The notes beneath the pieces were generated by a model. It saw only the letters and a list, made by a program, of their open reading frames with translations, made no database searches and was not told the DNA's origin. This document shows, piece by piece, positions 1 to 38,625 of a stretch of DNA of 38,625 nt. A program made the translations under genes and the position numbers. This stretch comes from a virus. The stretch's first letter is position 1. Every line of letters starts with the position of its first letter. The stretch is taken from the UHGV virus genome UHGV-1545242; one strand, written 5' to 3'.

Positions 1-46
1 TTAACAGCTAACTCATAGCAACTCATTCCTATTCAGATACTAATTT

Positions 47-74
47 AACCCTCTGTTTTTACAGAGGGTTTTTG
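47..74 (+). repeat. Left copy of boundary direct repeat (attL candidate); forms hairpin CCCTCTGT-tttt-ACAGAGGG followed by T-run
   Basis: aaccctctgtttttacagagggtttttg; matches 38328-38355 except 2 loop positions. Confidence 0.65.
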
Positions 75-125
75 TTTTTATGTATTCATTTCTATTCACT
101 CTACACCATATTTTTCGTCGGTACA

Positions 126-136
126 GGTGACGGTAT
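126..136. promoter_or_regulatory. GGTGACGGTAT 11-mer, candidate integrase arm-type site (left)
   Basis: Identical 11-mer recurs at 38201-38211 near the other prophage end. Confidence 0.35.
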
Positions 137-150
137 TACCTTAAAGGTAT
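136..150. promoter_or_regulatory. TTACC-N5-GGTAT near-palindrome upstream of integrase
   Basis: ttaccttaaaggtat; one mismatch from the TTACC-N5-GGTAA motif. Confidence 0.4.
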
Positions 151-192
151 ACTCTCATACCGTCATGAAAATGGTTTCTATACGGGTGAATT

Positions 193-3159: not shown

Positions 3160-3408
3160 TCATGCAGCGTTGCTCACGGGACGATATACACGTTGCTGAA
3201 CAGGAGGCTTTTTACCCTGGAACTCTGCCGGGCTTGCTGCCTGACGTTCATCAAGCCAACGCTCAACTTCATCACGGTTCCATGCGCAGCGTTTATCGGT
3301 GATATACCAGCGTTTAGGAAATTCCCCTGCGCGCTCCATACGGTCGATAGTGCTCCATGACAGTGGCACCACCGCCAGGAGTTCTTTCTTACCTAATGCA
3401 CCTTTCAT
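3160..3408 (-). CDS. AlpA-family DNA-binding protein, probable excisionase/regulator
   Basis: Pattern LLAVVPLSWSTIDRMERAGEFPK...WNRDEVERWL matches AlpA/Xis-type winged helix proteins; position between int side and recombination genes. Confidence 0.7.
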   Translation of the reverse strand: MKGALGKKELLAVVPLSWSTIDRMERAGEFPKRWYITDKRCAWNRDEVERWLDERQAASPAEFQGKKPPVQQRVYRPVSNAA

Positions 3409-3457
3409 GAATACCTCTCTTGGTTGCAGTGCGGCGCACGTGGCGCCGCGGTGGTGG

Positions 3458-4480
3458 TTACTCGAATTCTGGACGCATATCGTTAAGCGTCATCATGAAT
3501 TTTTGGTGATATTCATCACCGAGCTTTTCAGCCATGGTGTTAATTTCATTTTCAGCGCGCTTGAACATCGTTTTTGCATCTTCAGCAGATGGATCCAGGC
3601 TATTAAGTATCGCGATGATATATTCTCGAGCTTCTTCTCGTTCTGAATCTGAAATTGGCGACAGGTGTTGACGCTCATCGTCAACTACGGAATATTCACC
3701 AGTGATAACAGCTGCGTTATCTTGGCTAAGTCCAGCTTCAGCGCGCTCATCCATAACAACAGCCTTCTGCATTTCAATAGAAACAGGAAGATATTTGAAC
3801 AGTCGGCGAATTACTGTTTTTTTAGCCATCTCATCGAAGTGATCAACCCATGGGCCACTGCTACCGGCTTTGCTCAGTGCACGAACTTTCTCAACGTCTG
3901 CCCGGCTCATAACTTCAAATTGGACTCCGCCATCTTTCAGTCGTGCAACGGCGTAAACGTGCGTTAATTCTCCGCGGTCACCTGTTTCGCAAGGTAAATG
4001 CTCGAGCGTTTCTTCCAGGCCGTATGAGTAGCTGAATTTGTCGTTTGTATGTACGGTACGAGCCGAGATACTCAGGATCTGCCCAGAGCGGCGGGCAAGG
4101 TCAATCATTCCGCGATAGCCGATAATCAGCTGTGCTTCTGTAGATACGGTTTCCCATCTTCCATTTACTTTCTGGCGTTTGTCGAACGGTATCAGGTAAG
4201 CGTGTCCAAGAGCTCCGCCTGGTTCAAGACCCAATTGGGCACATTGCATAATTGCCCCCAGGAAGCTGGCTTGGTCGCATGATGCAAGTTTTGGAACCTT
4301 TCTGATCTCTGTGGTTGCTATGCGCGCCAGACGGTCTGCTGTCATGTGCTTTGGAAGTGCCAAAGCCATCTGAGCTTTAATTTTTGGGTCTGCCAGAAGT
4401 CCGGCCAGAGTTGTTGGTTTCTCATTATGATGTGCAACTTGGTTACCGGTAGCCGCTGCCTTAAGTGCATTGATAGACAT
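3458..4480 (-). CDS. recT: RecT-family single-strand annealing recombinase
   Basis: LIIGYRGMIDLARRSGQI and VYAVARLKDGG blocks characteristic of RecT (Rac prophage type). Confidence 0.9.
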   Translation of the reverse strand: MSINALKAAATGNQVAHHNEKPTTLAGLLADPKIKAQMALALPKHMTADRLARIATTEIRKVPKLASCDQASFLGAIMQCAQLGLEPGGALGHAYLIPFDKRQKVNGRWETVSTEAQLIIGYRGMIDLARRSGQILSISARTVHTNDKFSYSYGLEETLEHLPCETGDRGELTHVYAVARLKDGGVQFEVMSRADVEKVRALSKAGSSGPWVDHFDEMAKKTVIRRLFKYLPVSIEMQKAVVMDERAEAGLSQDNAAVITGEYSVVDDERQHLSPISDSEREEAREYIIAILNSLDPSAEDAKTMFKRAENEINTMAEKLGDEYHQKFMMTLNDMRPEFE

Positions 4481-4489
4481 TTTTTCTCC

Positions 4490-5368
4490 TTACTTCATTC
4501 TGAAGACGCGTTGTGTCGTTGTTGTTTTGAATTTTTCGAATAACTCAGGGTGTACTGACTGGAATAGCTTCTGGTCGAATCTGTTGCTGATCTGAGATTT
4601 CCATGTGCAGAGCGGCTTTCCGTCCAGGGTCAGGACTGAGTGCTCTTGCATGTACATCTTCAGCTTCTCTTCTGATATAGCTATTTCTTCTTCCAGTGAT
4701 TTTCTGCGTGATTTCATGTCTCGTAGATCGTTGAATAGTGCGAGTGCCTTTCCGTCAGCCTCGATACTTGTCCCGGCATCTTTCTCAAACATCAGCGATA
4801 CATCGCTTACGCTGGTAGCTTCCGGCGGGTTAAGATTTTTCACTCGGTCCCAGAAAGCGATTTCTTTTTCTAAGATCGCCTGGATAGTTTCTTCATCACG
4901 CTCAACCCGATAGATTCGGAAGTCGTCGCCACCGATAAGCACACCGAAAACGCATACCTGTTTGTTTGTAACCATCAACCCGTGCATGGCCTGGGCCGTG
5001 TAATGCACAGGAATTGCATCTGTCTGGATTTCTCCCCATTCTTTGGCTTTGAACGGACTAACTGTTTTGATCTCAATATTCTCGCCTGACGCTGCTTCTG
5101 CATCGATCTCAGCTGCAATAAAATCGTAATCACGGTGGATATAGCGGTTTCCGCGATGAACGATTTCCATCCCTGTTTCCTCAGAAAGCAGGTCTATTAC
5201 GTATGGCTCCATACGCTGGCCACGCGTGAAAACTTTCTGCTTGCTTGGGTCTACTGGTTTGACACGTGGCTGGACCTTATCCAGATAAACCTCAAGCGGG
5301 GTGCGCCATGGGCTAATTCCAAGAATCCCTGCAACATCGCTTCCTCCGATGTATTTTGTTCTATCCAT
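4490..5368 (-). CDS. YqaJ-type (lambda Exo-like) recombination exonuclease
   Basis: N-terminal GGSDVAGILGISPWRTPLEVY motif of YqaJ viral recombinase domain; immediately upstream of recT; start taken at MDRTKY (ORF extends to 5389). Confidence 0.85.
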   Translation of the reverse strand: MDRTKYIGGSDVAGILGISPWRTPLEVYLDKVQPRVKPVDPSKQKVFTRGQRMEPYVIDLLSEETGMEIVHRGNRYIHRDYDFIAAEIDAEAASGENIEIKTVSPFKAKEWGEIQTDAIPVHYTAQAMHGLMVTNKQVCVFGVLIGGDDFRIYRVERDEETIQAILEKEIAFWDRVKNLNPPEATSVSDVSLMFEKDAGTSIEADGKALALFNDLRDMKSRRKSLEEEIAISEEKLKMYMQEHSVLTLDGKPLCTWKSQISNRFDQKLFQSVHPELFEKFKTTTTQRVFRMK

Positions 5369-32950: not shown

Positions 32951-35900
32951 ATGACGGTCTCAACCGAAGTTGACCACAACGAATACACCGGTAACGGCGT
33001 TACGACATCGTTTCCGTATACTTTTCGAATTTTCAGAAAATCAGACCTGGTTGTTCAGGTGTCTGACCTGAACGGAAACGTAACAGAATTGGTTCTGGAT
33101 ACCGGTTATACGGTAACTGGGGCGGGCACTTATAGTGGCGGTTCTGTGGTTCTTCCGTCTCCGCTTGCTACTGGATGGCGAATTACGATAGATCGTGTGC
33201 TTGATGTAGTGCAGGAGACAGACCTTCGCAATCAGGGAAAATTTTTCCCCGAAGTGCATGAAGATGCCTTTGACTACCTGACGATGCTGATCCAGCAATG
33301 TTTTGGGTGGTTCAGACGTGCATTGATGAAACCATCTTTGCTTGCAAAATATTACGATGCAAAGCAAAACAAAATTTCTAACCTTGCAGATCCATCATTT
33401 GAGCAGGACGCTGTAAATAATCGCTCAATGCGTAATTATGTCGATGCTGCAATCGCCGGGGTTGTTGGTGGTTTTGGTTGGTTTATTCAGTATGGTTCTG
33501 GGGCTGTGTACCGAACGTTCCAGGATAAAATGCGTGATGCTATTAGCCCCAAAGATTTTGGAGCTGTTGGTGATGGTATAAATGACGATTCCACTGCAAT
33601 AAGCGCGTGCCTTGAAGCCTCATCTCCAGGTTATAAAATTGACGGATTAGGGCTTACTTTTAAAGTATCAACTCTTCCGGATGTCAGTCGATTTAAAAAT
33701 GCTCGTTTTTTATTTGAGAGAATACCGGGCCAGCCTCTTTTTTATGCTTCTGAAGATTTTATCCAGGGAGAGTTATTTAAAATTACAGATACACCGTGGT
33801 ACAACGCCTGGACGCAGGATAAAACGTTTGTATATGACAATGTCATCTATGCGCCTTTTATGGCTGGAGACCGCCATGGTGTAAATAACCTCCATGTTGC
33901 ATGGGTTCGCTCAGGAGATGACGGGAAGACCTGGACAACGCCGGAATGGCTTACAGATTTACATGAAAACTATCCCACAGTTAACTATCACTGCATGAGT
34001 ATGGGGGTTGTCAGAAATCGCCTTTTTGCTGTAATTGAGACGCGGACCGTGAGAGGAAATAAACTGCAGGTTGCAGAGTTGTGGGATCGCCCAATGAGTC
34101 GCAGCCTTCGCGTTTATGGTGGTATAACGAAAGCAGCAAATCAGCAAGTCGCTTATATTCGCATTACTGATCACGGATTATTTGCTGGTGATTTTGTCAA
34201 CTTCTCAAACTCTGGTGTTACAGGTGTTACCGGGAATATGACGGTGACTACTGTTATTGATAAAAATACCTTTACAGTTACGACGCAAAATACCCAGGAT
34301 GTGGATCAGAATAACGAGGGTAGATACTGGAGTTTTGGCACATCATTTCACTCGTCACCATGGAGAAAAACCAGTCTTGGAACTATTCCTTCTTTTGTTG
34401 ACGGAAGCACTCCTGTTACTGAGATTCACAGTTTTGCGACGATTAGCGATAACAGTTTTGCTGTTGGCTACCATAATGGTGATATTGGTCCACGCGAGCT
34501 TGGGATACTCTATTTCTCTGATGCTTTCGGTTCTCCTGGTAGCTTTGTTCGCAGACGCATACCTGTAGAATATGAGGCGAATGCATCTGAGCCATGTGTA
34601 AAATATTATGATGGCATTCTGTATCTGACGACCAGGGGGACATTAAGTACTCAACCCGGTAGTTCATTGCACAGAAGCTCTGATTTAGGTACATCATGGA
34701 ATTCTCTTCGCTTCCCAAATAATGTTCATCACTCAAACCTTCCTTTTGCCAAAGTTGGCGATGAGCTGATTATTTTTGGCAGTGAGCGCGCATTTGGTGA
34801 GTGGGAAGGAGGAGAACCTGATAACCGTTATGCAGGAAATTATCCAAGAACATTTATGACCAGAGTTAACGTCAATGAGTGGAGTCTGGATAATGTAGAG
34901 TGGGTTAATGTTACTGATCAGATTTATCAGGGCGGAATAGTTAACTCTGCGGTTGGTGTTGGTTCAGTTTGTATCAAAGACAACTGGCTGTACTACATTT
35001 TCGGTGGGGAAGACTTTCTAAACCCATGGAGCATAGGGGATAACAACAGAAAATATCCTTATGTTCACGATGGTCACCCGGCTGATTTGTATTGTTTCAG
35101 GGTGAAAATTAAACAGGAAGAATTTGTTTCAAGGGATTTTGTCTACGGAGCCACTCCTAACAGAACGCTTCCTACTTTTATGTCGACGTCAGGCGTGAGG
35201 ACGGTTCCTGTACCCGTTGATTTCACAGATGATGTTGCCGTCCAGTCACTGACTGTCCATGCAGGTACATCAGGACAAGTTCGCGCGGAAGTCAAACTTG
35301 AGGGTAATTACGCCATTATTGCGAAGAAAGTACCGTCTGATGATGTTACCGCTCAGAGATTAATCGTTAGCGGCGGTGAAACAACGTCTTCAGCAGATGG
35401 TGCAATGATAACGTTGCATGGTTCCGGAAGCAGTACTCCACGTCGCGCGGTATATAACGCACTCGAACATCTTTTTGAGAACGGAGATGTTAAACCTTAT
35501 CTTGATAATGTAAATGCTCTTGGTGGTCCGGGAAACAGGTTCTCGACAGTTTATCTTGGCTCCAATCCTGTGGTTACCAGTGACGGAACATTAAAGACAG
35601 AGCCGGTCTCTCCTGACGAAGCATTGCTGGATGCCTGGGGTGACGTCAGGTATATCGCTTATAAATGGCTGAACGCTGTCGCTATAAAGGGGGAAGAAGG
35701 GGCGAGGATACATCATGGTGTAATCGCGCAGCAACTTCGTGATGTTCTTATTTCTCACGGACTCATGGAAGAAGAAAGCACAACATGCCGCTATGCCTTT
35801 CTTTGCTATGACGATTATCCCGCAGTATATGATGACGTCATTACTGGCCAAAGGGAAATGCCGCTGACTGATAATGACGGGAGCATCATTGTTGATGAGG

Positions 35901-36070
35901 ATGATAATCCAGTGATGGTAATAGAAGACATCATTGAGCGCGTTGAAATAACGCCAGCAGGATCTAGATGGGGGGTCAGACCTGATCTCTTATTCTATAT
36001 CGAGGCAGCATGGCAGCGCAGAGAAATGGATAAGATAAAAGAGCGGGTTCAGTCTCTGGAAGAACGTTAA
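32951..36070 (+). CDS. Tailspike/depolymerase with C-terminal intramolecular chaperone (S74-type) domain
   Basis: 1039 aa; conserved N-terminal virion-attachment region; central DFGAVGDGINDDSTAI beta-helix start motif; C-terminal TSDGTLK...YIAYKW...RIHHGVIAQQL pattern. Confidence 0.85.
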   Translation: MTVSTEVDHNEYTGNGVTTSFPYTFRIFRKSDLVVQVSDLNGNVTELVLDTGYTVTGAGTYSGGSVVLPSPLATGWRITIDRVLDVVQETDLRNQGKFFPEVHEDAFDYLTMLIQQCFGWFRRALMKPSLLAKYYDAKQNKISNLADPSFEQDAVNNRSMRNYVDAAIAGVVGGFGWFIQYGSGAVYRTFQDKMRDAISPKDFGAVGDGINDDSTAISACLEASSPGYKIDGLGLTFKVSTLPDVSRFKNARFLFERIPGQPLFYASEDFIQGELFKITDTPWYNAWTQDKTFVYDNVIYAPFMAGDRHGVNNLHVAWVRSGDDGKTWTTPEWLTDLHENYPTVNYHCMSMGVVRNRLFAVIETRTVRGNKLQVAELWDRPMSRSLRVYGGITKAANQQVAYIRITDHGLFAGDFVNFSNSGVTGVTGNMTVTTVIDKNTFTVTTQNTQDVDQNNEGRYWSFGTSFHSSPWRKTSLGTIPSFVDGSTPVTEIHSFATISDNSFAVGYHNGDIGPRELGILYFSDAFGSPGSFVRRRIPVEYEANASEPCVKYYDGILYLTTRGTLSTQPGSSLHRSSDLGTSWNSLRFPNNVHHSNLPFAKVGDELIIFGSERAFGEWEGGEPDNRYAGNYPRTFMTRVNVNEWSLDNVEWVNVTDQIYQGGIVNSAVGVGSVCIKDNWLYYIFGGEDFLNPWSIGDNNRKYPYVHDGHPADLYCFRVKIKQEEFVSRDFVYGATPNRTLPTFMSTSGVRTVPVPVDFTDDVAVQSLTVHAGTSGQVRAEVKLEGNYAIIAKKVPSDDVTAQRLIVSGGETTSSADGAMITLHGSGSSTPRRAVYNALEHLFENGDVKPYLDNVNALGGPGNRFSTVYLGSNPVVTSDGTLKTEPVSPDEALLDAWGDVRYIAYKWLNAVAIKGEEGARIHHGVIAQQLRDVLISHGLMEEESTTCRYAFLCYDDYPAVYDDVITGQREMPLTDNDGSIIVDEDDNPVMVIEDIIERVEITPAGSRWGVRPDLLFYIEAAWQRREMDKIKERVQSLEER

Positions 36071-36075
36071 AAAAA

Positions 36076-36096
36076 AGCCCGCAAAATATTGCGGGT
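36076..36096. terminator. Hairpin after tailspike (possible terminator)
   Basis: AGCCCGC-aaaatatt-GCGGGT flanked by A-run upstream; lacks strong downstream T-run on plus strand. Confidence 0.35.
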
Positions 36097-36376
36097 ATCA
36101 AAAACGGAGTTGGTGAAAAGTTATCTTTGAATTCTATCATGAATCAGTACGTATTTTAAATACATGTTCAGGTTTATTACACCATAGCATTATTAAATAC
36201 AAAATTAAGTCTATGGTTCCTGTACAACTGCCCCCACTCTGCTGGCTCGTTCTGTAAAATCATTAGTACTTTTATTGAGATATATGATATGGAACAATAA
36301 TGATTCATATATGGTTTACTATGCGGGTTTAGTCATCAATAATTGACTGGCTTATAGATAGTAAACAGGAGAAAGT

Positions 36377-36781
36377 ATGTCTGCTCAAGTAACAAGTGAG
36401 CAATTAAATCAGTTGCTTAGTTTTGGTTCTCTTGCTGCAGTTATTGCAGGTGTCCCTCCGGAGGTTGCTTTAGGGGCTTTGGCTGGGGCGGTAATTTTTG
36501 TTACCTCTGCAGTAGAGTACCCCATCCGTCGCCGGGTGCTCCTGTCGATGCTCAGCTTTCTTTGCGGCCTTCTCTTTTACAAACCAGCAGCATCAATTCT
36601 TATCGGCATAGCCAGCCTGATCCCTACCATCACGCAGGACTCTTTTGAAAAAGGGATTGTTTTCTCTGCAGGCGCATTCGTGTCAGCAATTGTCGCTGTG
36701 CGTATTGGTATATGGCTCTATCACCGTTCCGATAATCCACGCGAGTTAATTCCGGGGAGAAAAGACGATGGTAACGCATGA
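36377..36781 (+). CDS. Holin (multi-TMD)
   Basis: Hydrophobic segments separated by short charged loops, charged C-terminus; SD AACAGGAGAAAGT then ATG; precedes endolysin. Confidence 0.7.
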   Translation: MSAQVTSEQLNQLLSFGSLAAVIAGVPPEVALGALAGAVIFVTSAVEYPIRRRVLLSMLSFLCGLLFYKPAASILIGIASLIPTITQDSFEKGIVFSAGAFVSAIVAVRIGIWLYHRSDNPRELIPGRKDDGNA

Positions 36782-37076
36782 GTTTTTTTTGCTTATCACT
36801 AATGCAGTTATTTGCACTGGCATAGCAATTCGCGTTGTCACATTCCGGCGTAACGGCTCTCAACATCGAAGGTGGGGAGGATGGCTTGCTTATTTCCTGA
36901 TTGTTGCTGCGGCCAGTATTCCTGTTCGAGTCGCCTATGCAATCTGGTTACGTACGCCAATGGCTGTGGATTTATCTGAGGTCATTATCAACGCTGTCAT
37001 GCTGGCTGCGGTTATTAAAACGCGCGGTAACGTCGTTCAAATTTTTAAAGTATCGAGGTCTAAACATGGAGATTAA
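36768..37076 (+). CDS. Second small membrane protein of lysis cassette (holin/antiholin-like)
   Basis: Three hydrophobic stretches; overlaps holin stop and endolysin start. Confidence 0.5.
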
Positions 37077-37695
37077 ACAATTCCAGCGAGCTGCTGGTAT
37101 CAGCGAGGCACTGGCCGCACGCTGGTTCTCGCATATAACTTCTGCGATGAAAGAGTTTGGTATCAGCAAAGCAGAAGATCAGGCAATGTTTATTGCTCAA
37201 GTCGGGCATGAGTCTGGGGGCTTCACCAGGTTGCAGGAGAATTTCAACTACAGTGTCAGCGGACTGGCTAACTTCGTTCGGGCTGGGCGTCTCACTCAGG
37301 GGCAGGCTAATGCACTGGGGCGCCGTGCTGGTGAACCACCATTGCCACTTGAGCGCCAGCGCGCGATCGCAAATCTGGTATACAGCAAACGCATGGGGAA
37401 CAATGCCCCTGGTGATGGCTGGAATTACCGAGGGCGCGGACTTATCCAGATTACCGGTTTGAATAACTATCGTGATTGCGGAAACGGTCTGAAGGTTGAC
37501 CTGCTGGAGAGCCCTGAACTGCTGGCGCAGGACGGATATGCGGCTCGTAGCGCGGCGTGGTTCTTCGCCAGCAAAGGATGCATGAAGTATACCGGCGATA
37601 TTGCACGTGTAACTCTGATTATCAATGGTGGCCGGAACGGCATCGACGACCGGCGAGCGCGGTACATCACTGCCAGTAAGGTGCTGGCGGTATGA
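37066..37695 (+). CDS. Endolysin, glycoside hydrolase family 19 (chitinase-like lysozyme)
   Basis: GH19-type motifs [12 protein letters not shown] and [12 protein letters not shown]; start at MEIKQF (ORF track begins further upstream). Confidence 0.85.
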
Positions 37696-38174
37696 TCTGG
37701 GCATTCGTAAAAGCATACTGGAAACAGTTTCTTATCGTGGCAGTGCTTGCTGTTCTGGTCATATCAGGAGTGGTTGCCTGGAATATACACGGCAGTCGCC
37801 AGTACGATGCCGGGTATGCTCAGGCGGAAGAAGACCGCAAAGCCGAAGAAGACAAAGTTCGTCAGTACTACGAACAGGAGAAAGTGACCAATGAACGTGA
37901 AGCTCAGCAGAGGATCGACCAGGCGCGCAATGATGCTCTTGATGCTGCCGCTAGCGCTGGCCGGTTGCAGCAACAACTCTTTGCCATCCGTGAGCAGCTC
38001 AGGCAGTATAACGCCATTGTCGGCGCTGGGTCGTCAGCCGCAGACACCGGAGTTTTGCTTGCCGACGTGCTCAGCAAATCTCTCGAGAGAAACAGACAAC
38101 TGGCAGAGTATGCTGACCGGGCAGCCGAAGCCGGAAGAGTCTGCGAAAAACAGTACGACACTTTGACCAGATAG
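37692..38174 (+). CDS. Rz: i-spanin (Rz-like)
   Basis: N-terminal TMD ([18 protein letters not shown]) then charged coiled-coil periplasmic domain; follows endolysin. Confidence 0.75.
37891..38166 (+). CDS. Rz1: o-spanin (Rz1-like) embedded in the Rz gene in an alternate frame
   Basis: Lipoprotein signal [13 protein letters not shown] and Pro/Ser-rich mature region, wholly inside Rz coordinates. Confidence 0.6.
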   Translation: MNVKLSRGSTRRAMMLLMLPLALAGCSNNSLPSVSSSGSITPLSALGRQPQTPEFCLPTCSANLSRETDNWQSMLTGQPKPEESAKNSTTL

Positions 38175-38200
38175 CATGGCATTTTTCATGGTACTGATTT

Positions 38201-38211
38201 CCGGTGACGGT
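38201..38211. promoter_or_regulatory. GGTGACGGTAT 11-mer, candidate integrase arm-type site (right)
   Basis: Identical to 126-136; followed by related ACGGTAC. Confidence 0.35.
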
Positions 38212-38327
38212 ATATAAAACGGTACGGGAAAAATTGAGATTTGGAAAAATGTTATCACTCAATTGGTTATGGTTATCGTAAATAATTGAGTGGGAATGAT
38301 TTTGATCCCTGCACTATGAATGAACAA

Positions 38328-38355
38328 AACCCTCTGTTACTACAGAGGGTTTTTT
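38328..38355 (+). repeat. Right copy of boundary direct repeat (attR candidate); hairpin plus T-run, rho-independent terminator-like
   Basis: aaccctctgttactacagagggtttttt; near-identical to 47-74. Confidence 0.65.
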
Positions 38356-38393
38356 ATCTTCAAGAATTATAGGCTTGAAGTTACTTACATCGA

Positions 38394-38625
38394 TTAATTA
38401 AACCAGCTGTCCGATTTGTTCTCTTCTGCTTTGCCCACGCTTTTCATCAGATCGCGACCGCCTTCAGTCATATTTCTGTTTGCGTCAGCTTCAGATTGCA
38501 CCACATCGGTTTGCGCAGCTTTGTGCTTCAGTTCCTGATCGATAAATTCGTTTTCTCGCTTAACGCGGGCTGAACCGCCCCGGGTTTCCTGGAGAGTGTT
38601 TTATCTGTGAACTCAGGCTGCCAGA
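38394..38625 (-). CDS. 3' end of flanking host gene (partial, convergent to prophage end)
   Basis: Minus-strand frame open to window edge, ending ...MTEGGRDLMKSVGKAEENKSDSWFN; lies outside the right boundary repeat. Confidence 0.4.

Follow-up and report, generated by a model that had tools for sequence, protein, structure and literature searches.

Spanin genes nested one inside the other have been in public records since the genome papers of the phages epsilon15 and phiV10, and the lysis cassette described here carries a pair of this kind. The cassette belongs to the virus genome UHGV-1545242, of which a prophage stretch of 38,625 nucleotides (nt), called the window below, was analyzed using a listing of its open reading frames (ORFs) and the raw sequence. 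The gene for the o-spanin (Rz1), an outer-membrane lipoprotein, lies entirely within the gene for the i-spanin (Rz), an inner-membrane protein.

Nested Rz/Rz1 genes are annotated in the records of epsilon15, phiV10, SPN9TCW, IME207, Bcep176, and Magia. Kongari et al. 2018 (PMC6139136) place epsilon15, phiV10, TL-2011b, and SPN1S in the embedded 'Bcep176' families of i-spanins and o-spanins. In Table S4 of the same survey (PMC6139136), epsilon15, phiV10, and TL-2011b are listed as 'emb', with the o-spanin in the +1 frame at an offset of 199 nt and ending 8 nt from the end of an i-spanin gene of length L = 483, that is, from 0.412008 to 0.983437 L. For about 70% of embedded o-spanins the start lies at 0.4-0.5 L and the end at 0.9-1 L, and 196 of the 528 o-spanins in the survey had been left unannotated (Kongari et al. 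2018, PMC6139136). It is also stated there that no spanin family mixes embedded with overlapped members.

The pair in the window has exactly the geometry tabulated for epsilon15, phiV10, and TL-2011b. The o-spanin ORF begins 199 nt into the i-spanin gene and ends 8 nt before its stop codon, occupying 0.412-0.983 L in the +1 frame. This is within the usual range, and the o-spanin of the window is therefore a typical one. We are highly confident that the cassette is the canonical holin-endolysin-spanin lysis operon of an epsilon15/phiV10-like (Uetakevirus) prophage, located at the 3' end of guaA in Escherichia coli O7:K1.

The nested spanin pair

The cassette consists of five tightly packed genes on the + strand (36377-38174), downstream of the tailspike gene. 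They are listed here with the ribosome-binding site of the embedded gene (aa, amino acids).

36377-36781, + strand: multi-pass membrane protein (holin family 8), a candidate for the holin or its partner, 134 aa; PF16931, phrog_198
36768-37076, + strand: protein with three transmembrane domains, holin 3_7 family (candidate holin), 102 aa; PF05449, phrog_217
37066-37695, + strand: soluble GH19 endolysin, 209 aa; PF00182, phrog_181, PDB 4OK7
37692-38174, + strand: i-spanin (Rz-like, DUF2514), 160 aa, ATG start; PF10721, phrog_312
37877-37884, + strand: Shine-Dalgarno sequence GGAGAAAG of the embedded o-spanin, within the Rz coding sequence, read from the sequence
37891-38166, + strand: o-spanin (Rz1-like outer-membrane lipoprotein precursor), 91 aa, ATG start, +1 frame; phrog_11621

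The first three genes overlap their successors by 14, 11, and 4 nt, and the endolysin and Rz share an ATGA stop/start. Overlaps of this kind usually indicate a single, translationally coupled operon. The spanin pair adjoins the endolysin gene, and the two holin-family genes are found further upstream. An earlier note on this DNA had described an Rz-type i-spanin gene at 37692-38174 with a fully embedded Rz1 lipoprotein frame, as part of a cassette that includes a GH19 endolysin and follows the tailspike. The ORF listing agrees with these coordinates and with this description: the tailspike occupies 32951-36070, and the Rz1 frame (37891-38166) lies inside the Rz gene.

The i-spanin matches PF10721 (DUF2514, E = 1.7e-43) and phrog_312 'Rz-like spanin' (E = 6.8e-60), as expected for an Rz-type protein. 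By tblastn it is 86% identical to epsilon15 gp26 (Rz) and 88% identical to the phiV10 type. Its only hydrophobic segment is N-terminal, within residues 4-35 (maximum 19-residue Kyte-Doolittle mean 2.63), which suggests a single N-terminal transmembrane helix and a type II topology. In the AlphaFold2 (AF2) model, with a mean predicted local distance difference test (pLDDT) score of 83.9, a helix (2-110) is followed by a break at 111-115 (GAGSS) and a second helix (116-159).

The o-spanin matches phrog_11621 'Rz-like spanin' (E = 1.6e-40), and a GGAGA ribosome-binding site of its own precedes it within the coding sequence of Rz. The N-terminus of the o-spanin contains four basic residues, a hydrophobic core, and a lipobox, L-A-G-C, with the cysteine at position 26 and serine at +2. 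With serine at +2, there is no Asp at this position to hold the lipoprotein back in the inner membrane. The mature protein of 66 residues is rich in Ser, Thr, and Pro and has two more cysteines, C56 and C60 (C31 and C35 of the mature form). Prediction of signal peptides and transmembrane segments had been suggested in the earlier note as a check, and both features are seen: a transmembrane domain in the i-spanin and a lipobox signal in the o-spanin. Note that transmembrane domains were called with a hydropathy window and lipoproteins with a lipobox pattern rather than with a trained predictor.

C151 of the i-spanin is invariant in an alignment of 16 diverse homologues. L23 and C26 of the lipobox, together with L43, C56, and C60, are invariant in the o-spanin alignment, also of 16 homologues, and Q49, P50, P58, and T59 are nearly so, giving the motif RQP...C-x-P-T-C. 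The i- and o-spanins of Bcep176 and Magia can be aligned with motifs common to the pair of the window. According to a published rule, two-component spanins depend on cysteines in the periplasm, through which they form homotypic disulfides, and the invariant C151 of Rz and C56 and C60 of Rz1 fit this rule. Every defining feature of an embedded two-component spanin that could be checked is present in the pair.

Conservation of the embedded frame

An ORF of this length in the +1 frame of Rz is by itself not rare. When the synonymous codons of Rz were shuffled 20,000 times, a +1 ORF of at least 91 codons appeared in 11% of the shuffles, because an Rz rich in Ala, Glu, Gln, and Arg seldom makes +1 stops. 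When an N-terminal lipobox was required, however, +1 ORFs of 50 codons or more appeared in only 0.4% of them.

Three sets of relatives were compared. The close set consists of 80 IMG/VR loci in which Rz is at least 88% identical, and the allele set of 57 distinct 483-nt alleles, including those of epsilon15, phiV10, and SPN9TCW. The distant set includes 16 GenBank phages with i-spanin identity down to 31%, whose hosts are Escherichia, Shigella, Salmonella, Klebsiella, Enterobacter, Pectobacterium, and Burkholderia. The +1 lipoprotein ORF is kept in all 80 close loci. All 57 alleles have the frame open and keep the ATG, a lipobox (LAGC or LVGC), and the GGAGAAA. A +1 lipoprotein ORF is found at the equal relative place in 15 of the 16 distant phages; in the remaining one, Edwardsiella phage eiAU, the strict lipobox scan found no embedded lipoprotein. 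An 88-aa o-spanin is listed for eiAU-183 by Kongari et al. 2018 (PMC6139136), and the miss in eiAU is probably due to a limit of the lipobox pattern or of the start-codon rule. Conservation of the Rz1 frame in relatives, which the earlier note had named as a point on which its description could fail, thus holds at both distances, and this conservation is decisive in showing the embedded frame to be more than chance.

The pattern of substitutions is informative as well. Among the 57 alleles, pairwise diversity at Rz codon positions 1, 2, and 3 is 0.102, 0.073, and 0.136 before the overlap and 0.035, 0.006, and 0.049 within it; nucleotide diversity is about threefold lower across the overlap. 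The overlap contains 68 distinct substitutions: 17 alter both proteins and four alter neither, while 30 are silent for Rz alone and 17 for Rz1 alone. Changes that are nonsynonymous in both frames make up 25% of those observed, compared with 54% of the possible non-stop changes (p = 1.5e-6). Among the 34 changes that are nonsynonymous in Rz, 17 are synonymous in Rz1, where 29% would be expected (p = 0.009). None of the 68 creates a stop codon, compared with an expected 8% (p = 0.003). These p-values are rough, as transition bias and phylogenetic non-independence are ignored. The direction of the bias is as predicted for two overlapping reading frames that are both under selection.

The o-spanin coding sequence is unannotated in both RefSeq CE10 (NC_017646.1) and GenBank ZX5 (MW722083.1). 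Among the family databases, NCBIfam has a model for none of the five cassette proteins, and Pfam has none for Rz1.

Two other ORFs overlap the cassette on the minus strand, one of 218 aa (37060-37716) opposite the endolysin and one of 92 aa (37904-38182) opposite the Rz/Rz1 overlap. They are taken as by-products of composition.

Endolysin and holin-family proteins

The identification of the endolysin as a GH19 enzyme in the earlier note is confirmed by PF00182 (E = 7.6e-9; 36.1 bits against a cut-off of 25.5) and by PDB 4OK7, the SPN1S endolysin (phmmer E = 8e-115 over residues 1-208); phrog_181 is matched also. The listed ORF begins at a TTG codon (36901), but translation truly starts at ATG 37066, the start used in all annotated relatives. 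The protein differs from the SPN1S endolysin by scattered substitutions only. An 11-residue stretch containing two glutamates eight residues apart is identical in the two proteins. E49 and E58 of the window endolysin are presumably the GH19 catalytic pair. No hydrophobic segment is present (maximum 19-residue Kyte-Doolittle mean 0.57), and therefore the enzyme has neither a signal-arrest-release (SAR) nor a signal anchor sequence. It is thus soluble and needs a holin to get to the wall.

The earlier note counted one holin and a second membrane protein. Both proteins are present, but each of them belongs to a family named for holins; these family names are annotation labels. The 134-aa protein matches PF16931 (Phage_holin_8; E = 1.4e-11, 45 bits, above the cut-off) and phrog_198 'holin' (E = 5.6e-41). 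It has three hydrophobic blocks (about 18-50, 54-83, and 90-115) and is orthologous to epsilon15 gp23 'membrane protein'. The AGGAGA upstream of its gene is the strongest ribosome-binding site in the cassette. The 102-aa protein matches PF05449 (Phage_holin_3_7; E = 5.1e-27, 94.2 bits, above the cut-off) and phrog_217 'holin' (E = 1.5e-35); its hydrophobic segments span residues 5-26, 38-61, and 64-84, and its C-terminus is charged. In the records of epsilon15, phiV10, and ZX5, the first gene is a 'membrane protein' and the second a 'holin'. RefSeq CE10 has 'putative holin' for the first and 'phage holin family protein' for the second.

Prophage ends and terminators

The features outside the cassette are as follows.

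32951-36070: tailspike, 1039 aa, precedes the lysis genes
36071-36376, no strand: AT-rich intergenic slot, from the tailspike stop to the first lysis gene
38286-38301, no strand: attR core TTGAGTGGGAATGATT, a 16-mer at the 3' end of host guaA, right prophage boundary
38326-38353, + strand: host intrinsic terminator (guaA/yfgI intergenic), 12-bp stem and T run, also at the empty K-12 site
46-78: phage look-alike terminator hairpin, read from the sequence

The window matches ZX5 phage DNA up to 38301 and then diverges; ZX5 continues as window 1-192 and into int (193-1449). In K-12, where the site is empty, guaA ends in TTGAGTGGGAATGATT, after which comes the sequence of window 38302 onwards (the yfgI side). 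Of the attL core, the window includes the last 2 nt, at its very start, and the final 476 nt of the window are 100% identical to the chromosomes of the E. coli O7:K1 strains CE10 and IAI39. From the comparisons with ZX5 and K-12, the window is a complete prophage. The terminator hairpins share a 14-nt repeat (window 60 and 38341), which was considered as the att core and is ruled out by ZX5 and by the empty K-12 site.

The attR core lies 112 bp past the Rz stop. The cassette is indeed located at the far right end, as the earlier note had it, but this position arises from integration, which splits the lysis genes from int. In the free phage the order is Rz/Rz1, attP, and int.

The host terminator (38326-38353) is the first terminator past the lysis operon in the prophage. 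Window 38328-38354 resembles a hairpin 3' of Rz/Rz1 in the records of phiV10, PAT1, Phi05_2388 B, and ZX5, with 92.6% identity over 27 nt, and a terminator is annotated at the position of this hairpin in epsilon15 and phiV10. The phage hairpin (window 46-78) ends the lysis operon in the phage state and guaA in the lysogen. With hairpins in both the phage and the host copies, guaA and the lysis operon each keep a terminator, whether the phage is integrated or free.

The host gene next to attR is yfgI (DUF5384), on the minus strand at about 38397-38625 of the window, and in both CE10 and IAI39 an IS3-family element breaks it up. The locus corresponds to 3245-4677 of the CE10 (NC_017646.1) stretch, and the element sits 270 bp beyond attR, outside the prophage. 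The last approximately 50 nt of the window are an end of this insertion sequence (IS), and they therefore match at thousands of places in E. coli genomes. The tailspike is named 'endosialidase catalytic beta-propeller domain-containing protein' in RefSeq, and the hosts CE10 and IAI39 are O7:K1. The prophage looks like a K1-capsule-specific Uetakevirus in a K1 strain.

The AT-rich slot upstream of the cassette

According to the earlier note, about 275 bp of AT-rich, promoter-like DNA (36101-36376) precedes the cassette. The stretch is AT-rich, with a GC content of 31.9% (about 32-33% for the slot 36071-36376), compared with 48.8% for the whole window. Its promoter-like character was not borne out. 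Three promoter-like matches are found on its + strand, each agreeing at just 9 of 12 positions. Sigma-70-like matches number six in the whole scanned region and 3.6 +/- 1.8 in shuffles, and for a promoter in 36101-36376 the scan gave no excess over shuffles. On the minus strand, promoter-like hexamers are present at 36160->36131, and a strong terminator (36095->36078) directly follows the tailspike stop. Apart from that hairpin after the tailspike, folding of the RNA of 36071-36380 (z-score -1.86) gave no convincing structure. The slot 36071-36376 has no Rfam match. In the Rfam scan of 35900-38625 (E <= 1), a sub-threshold His_leader hit across attR (23.7 against 49 bits) was taken as chance.

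DNA identity to phiV10 and epsilon15 begins only at 36352. In epsilon15 the slot carries minus-strand gp21/gp22 (an O-antigen ligase-family protein and a polymerase inhibitor), and in phiV10 minus-strand oac (an O-acetyltransferase); in the window it is empty. This version of the slot is common to 17 of 85 related loci. The slot 36071-36376 is the variable position where epsilon15 and phiV10 have their minus-strand serotype-conversion genes.

Alternative explanations

The 91-codon +1 frame may be thought of as an untranslated by-product of Rz composition, with Rz/DUF2514 acting alone or with an unlinked partner. The frequency of long +1 ORFs among the synonymous shuffles (11%), the missing annotation in RefSeq CE10 and GenBank ZX5, and the lack of a Pfam or NCBIfam model all speak for it, and with 11% of the shuffles matching it, ORF length is insufficient as proof of Rz1. 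This explanation is extremely improbable, however, considering the rarity of a lipobox ORF among the shuffles (0.4%), the ATG, GGAGAAA, and lipobox kept in 57 of 57 alleles, and the +1 lipoprotein ORF in homologues down to 31% i-spanin identity from seven host genera. The lipobox Leu and Cys and two further Cys are invariant, changes nonsynonymous in Rz are in excess synonymous in Rz1 (p = 0.009), no change creates a stop, and the match to the PHROG o-spanin family is strong (E = 1.6e-40). That the cassette is a relic in a defective prophage, with genes that look intact but are unexpressed or unneeded and a nested pair without present function, is also very unlikely, though somewhat less so. 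In favor of a relic, the window is a prophage in a chromosome, the IS3 element lies in yfgI 270 bp beyond attR, and the promoter scan upstream gave no excess over shuffles. Against this, all five reading frames are intact, and the IS3 element is outside the prophage. Phage vB_EcoP_ZX5, which was isolated from faeces on E. coli, has a cassette 99.8% identical to that of the window (Rz 99.4% identical, Rz1 one residue apart). Moreover, int to attR spans 38.3 kb, a full Uetakevirus length compared with the 39.1-39.7 kb of phiV10 and epsilon15.

The functional lysis operon remains the preferred reading, but besides the insufficiency of ORF length several points weigh against it. Part of the low diversity in the overlap could come from recombination in the past or from the Rz C-terminal domain being conserved in general. 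The AF2 model of the i-spanin is of a single sequence and is silent on oligomeric coiled coils. No experiments on spanins or holins of this phage group were found in the literature searched, and function is assigned by homology and from the paradigms of lambda and T4. Finally, the public records disagree on which of the 134-aa and 102-aa proteins is the holin. The phage records assume that it is the 102-aa protein. The reverse assignment, with the 134-aa PF16931 protein as the hole-former and the 102-aa PF05449 protein as an antiholin or accessory, is conceivable but rather doubtful. Both proteins match holin-named families, and the 134-aa protein is labeled 'putative holin' in RefSeq CE10 and has the strongest ribosome-binding site of the cassette. 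On the other hand, the records of epsilon15, phiV10, and ZX5 give 'holin' to the 102-aa protein and 'membrane protein' to the 134-aa protein, the family score is higher for the 102-aa protein (94 against 45 bits), and this protein has the classic holin shape, being small, with three transmembrane domains and a charged C-terminus. No experiment deciding between the two was found either way.

Proposed course of lysis

For the canonical operon, a course of lysis can be proposed by homology with lambda and from the literature on spanins. The structure of the genes, the families they belong to, the sorting signals, the conservation, and the constraint on both frames are observed, while we infer timing, complex formation, and membrane fusion. 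One or both of the membrane proteins (134 aa and 102 aa) would accumulate late in the inner membrane, trigger, and form holes, through which the soluble GH19 endolysin would leave to cut the peptidoglycan. The i-spanin would be held in the inner membrane by its N-terminal helix and extend two long periplasmic helices. The o-spanin is translated in the +1 frame of the i-spanin gene, starting at ATG 37891 and with a GGAGA site of its own. Signal peptidase II would cleave it, Cys26 would receive the lipid, and the protein would move to the outer membrane. The two spanins may be joined beforehand via their C-terminal parts, spanning the periplasm as a bridge. Removal of the wall meshwork would let this bridge collapse and fuse or disrupt the outer membrane, and lysis would be complete. 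As the o-spanin is inside the i-spanin gene, 276 nt encode both interacting partners.

Apparent exchange of the pair and overlapped relatives

Phi05_2388 B (KM389252.1) is 97.7% identical to the window over 36000-37834 and 93% identical again over 38186-38301. Between these, its positions 2644-2986 correspond to window 37835-38185 and hold a divergent PAT1-like allele with an Rz amino acid identity of 52%. The Rz periplasmic domain and the whole of Rz1 appear to have been swapped in this phage as one recombination unit.

Another arrangement is found in two N4-like phages. In the record stretch of Possum (Pectobacterium), Rz is located at 613-1113 and Rz1 at 809-1135; in that of GADU21 (Klebsiella), Rz is at 616-1125 and the lipoprotein ORF, again in the +1 frame, at 821-1150. 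Both o-spanins share homology with Rz1 of the window (BLASTP E = 1e-11; motif C-L-P-T-C-S-x-N-L-S-x-E-x-D-S-W) but run 22-25 nt past the i-spanin stop, as in the overlapped architecture. It is tentatively proposed, at somewhat less than even confidence, that the epsilon15/Bcep176 spanin family mixes embedded and overlapped members and, together with the exchange in Phi05_2388 B, offers a natural series for how embedding arises and how the partners swap together. If true, such a mixed architecture contradicts the statement of the 2018 survey.

Beyond annotation the cassette has little importance, the same coordinates relative to Rz having been tabulated in that survey already. Its practical use is in annotation repair, since the o-spanin coding sequence is absent from RefSeq CE10 and ZX5, a kind of omission that is common. 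The dual-frame constraint makes a clean teaching example of overlapping coding and opens no new question.

Comparison with known systems

The record of vB_EcoP_ZX5 (MW722083.1) has 99.8% DNA identity to the window over 36101-38301; the identity is 89.7% for phiV10 and 82.0% for epsilon15 (about 36377-38301). All are Uetakevirus. ZX5 shares the AT-rich slot of the window and the tailspike-lysis-int layout. It differs in being a free, circularly permuted phage record, has no o-spanin annotation, and carries a single Rz1 substitution, P80Q.

In epsilon15 and phiV10, the order of membrane protein, holin, GH19 endolysin, Rz with Rz1, attP, and int is shared with the window. The nested pair is represented by gp26/Rz1 in epsilon15 (NP_848234.1/YP_850992.1; 26139-26621/26338-26613) and by p30/p30a in phiV10 (YP_512284.1/YP_512285.1). 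Like those of the window, the two genes are 483 and 276 nt long, with the o-spanin in the +1 frame, offset by 199 nt, and ending 8 nt from the end; the i-spanins are 86-88% identical. Within the pair the differences are allelic only. Elsewhere, epsilon15 and phiV10 carry conversion genes in the slot, and the window has an endosialidase as its tailspike.

A more distant case is Burkholderia phage Bcep176, after which the spanin family is named and where gp56/gp57 likewise form a pair with a +1 embedded Rz1 (0.38-0.94 L). The motif ARQP...C-L-P-T-C-S and a C-terminal block of 11 residues in the i-spanin are found there as in the window, with identities of about 33% (i-spanin) and 44% (o-spanin). 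Bcep176 has a SAR endolysin and a type II holin instead of a soluble GH19 enzyme.

Rz/Rz1 of lambda, the prototype of embedded two-component spanins, belong to another sequence family but are built on the same plan. Rz is a type II inner-membrane protein with two periplasmic helices joined by a linker, and the gene for the outer-membrane lipoprotein is embedded in the +1 frame of its distal part (0.4-1.0 L). Rz of lambda has a cysteine near its C-terminus (C152; C151 in the window), and the pair is the last in the lysis cassette of both phages. The mature o-spanin of lambda has 40 aa and one periplasmic cysteine, whereas that of the window has 66 aa, is rich in Ser, Thr, and Pro, and has two cysteines in the C-x-P-T-C motif. 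The lambda lysis cassette lies before the terminase genes, unlike that of the window, which lies after the tailspike. The contrast with the lambdoid arrangement drawn in the earlier note is thus correct, and lysis after the tailspike is the normal layout of Uetakevirus.

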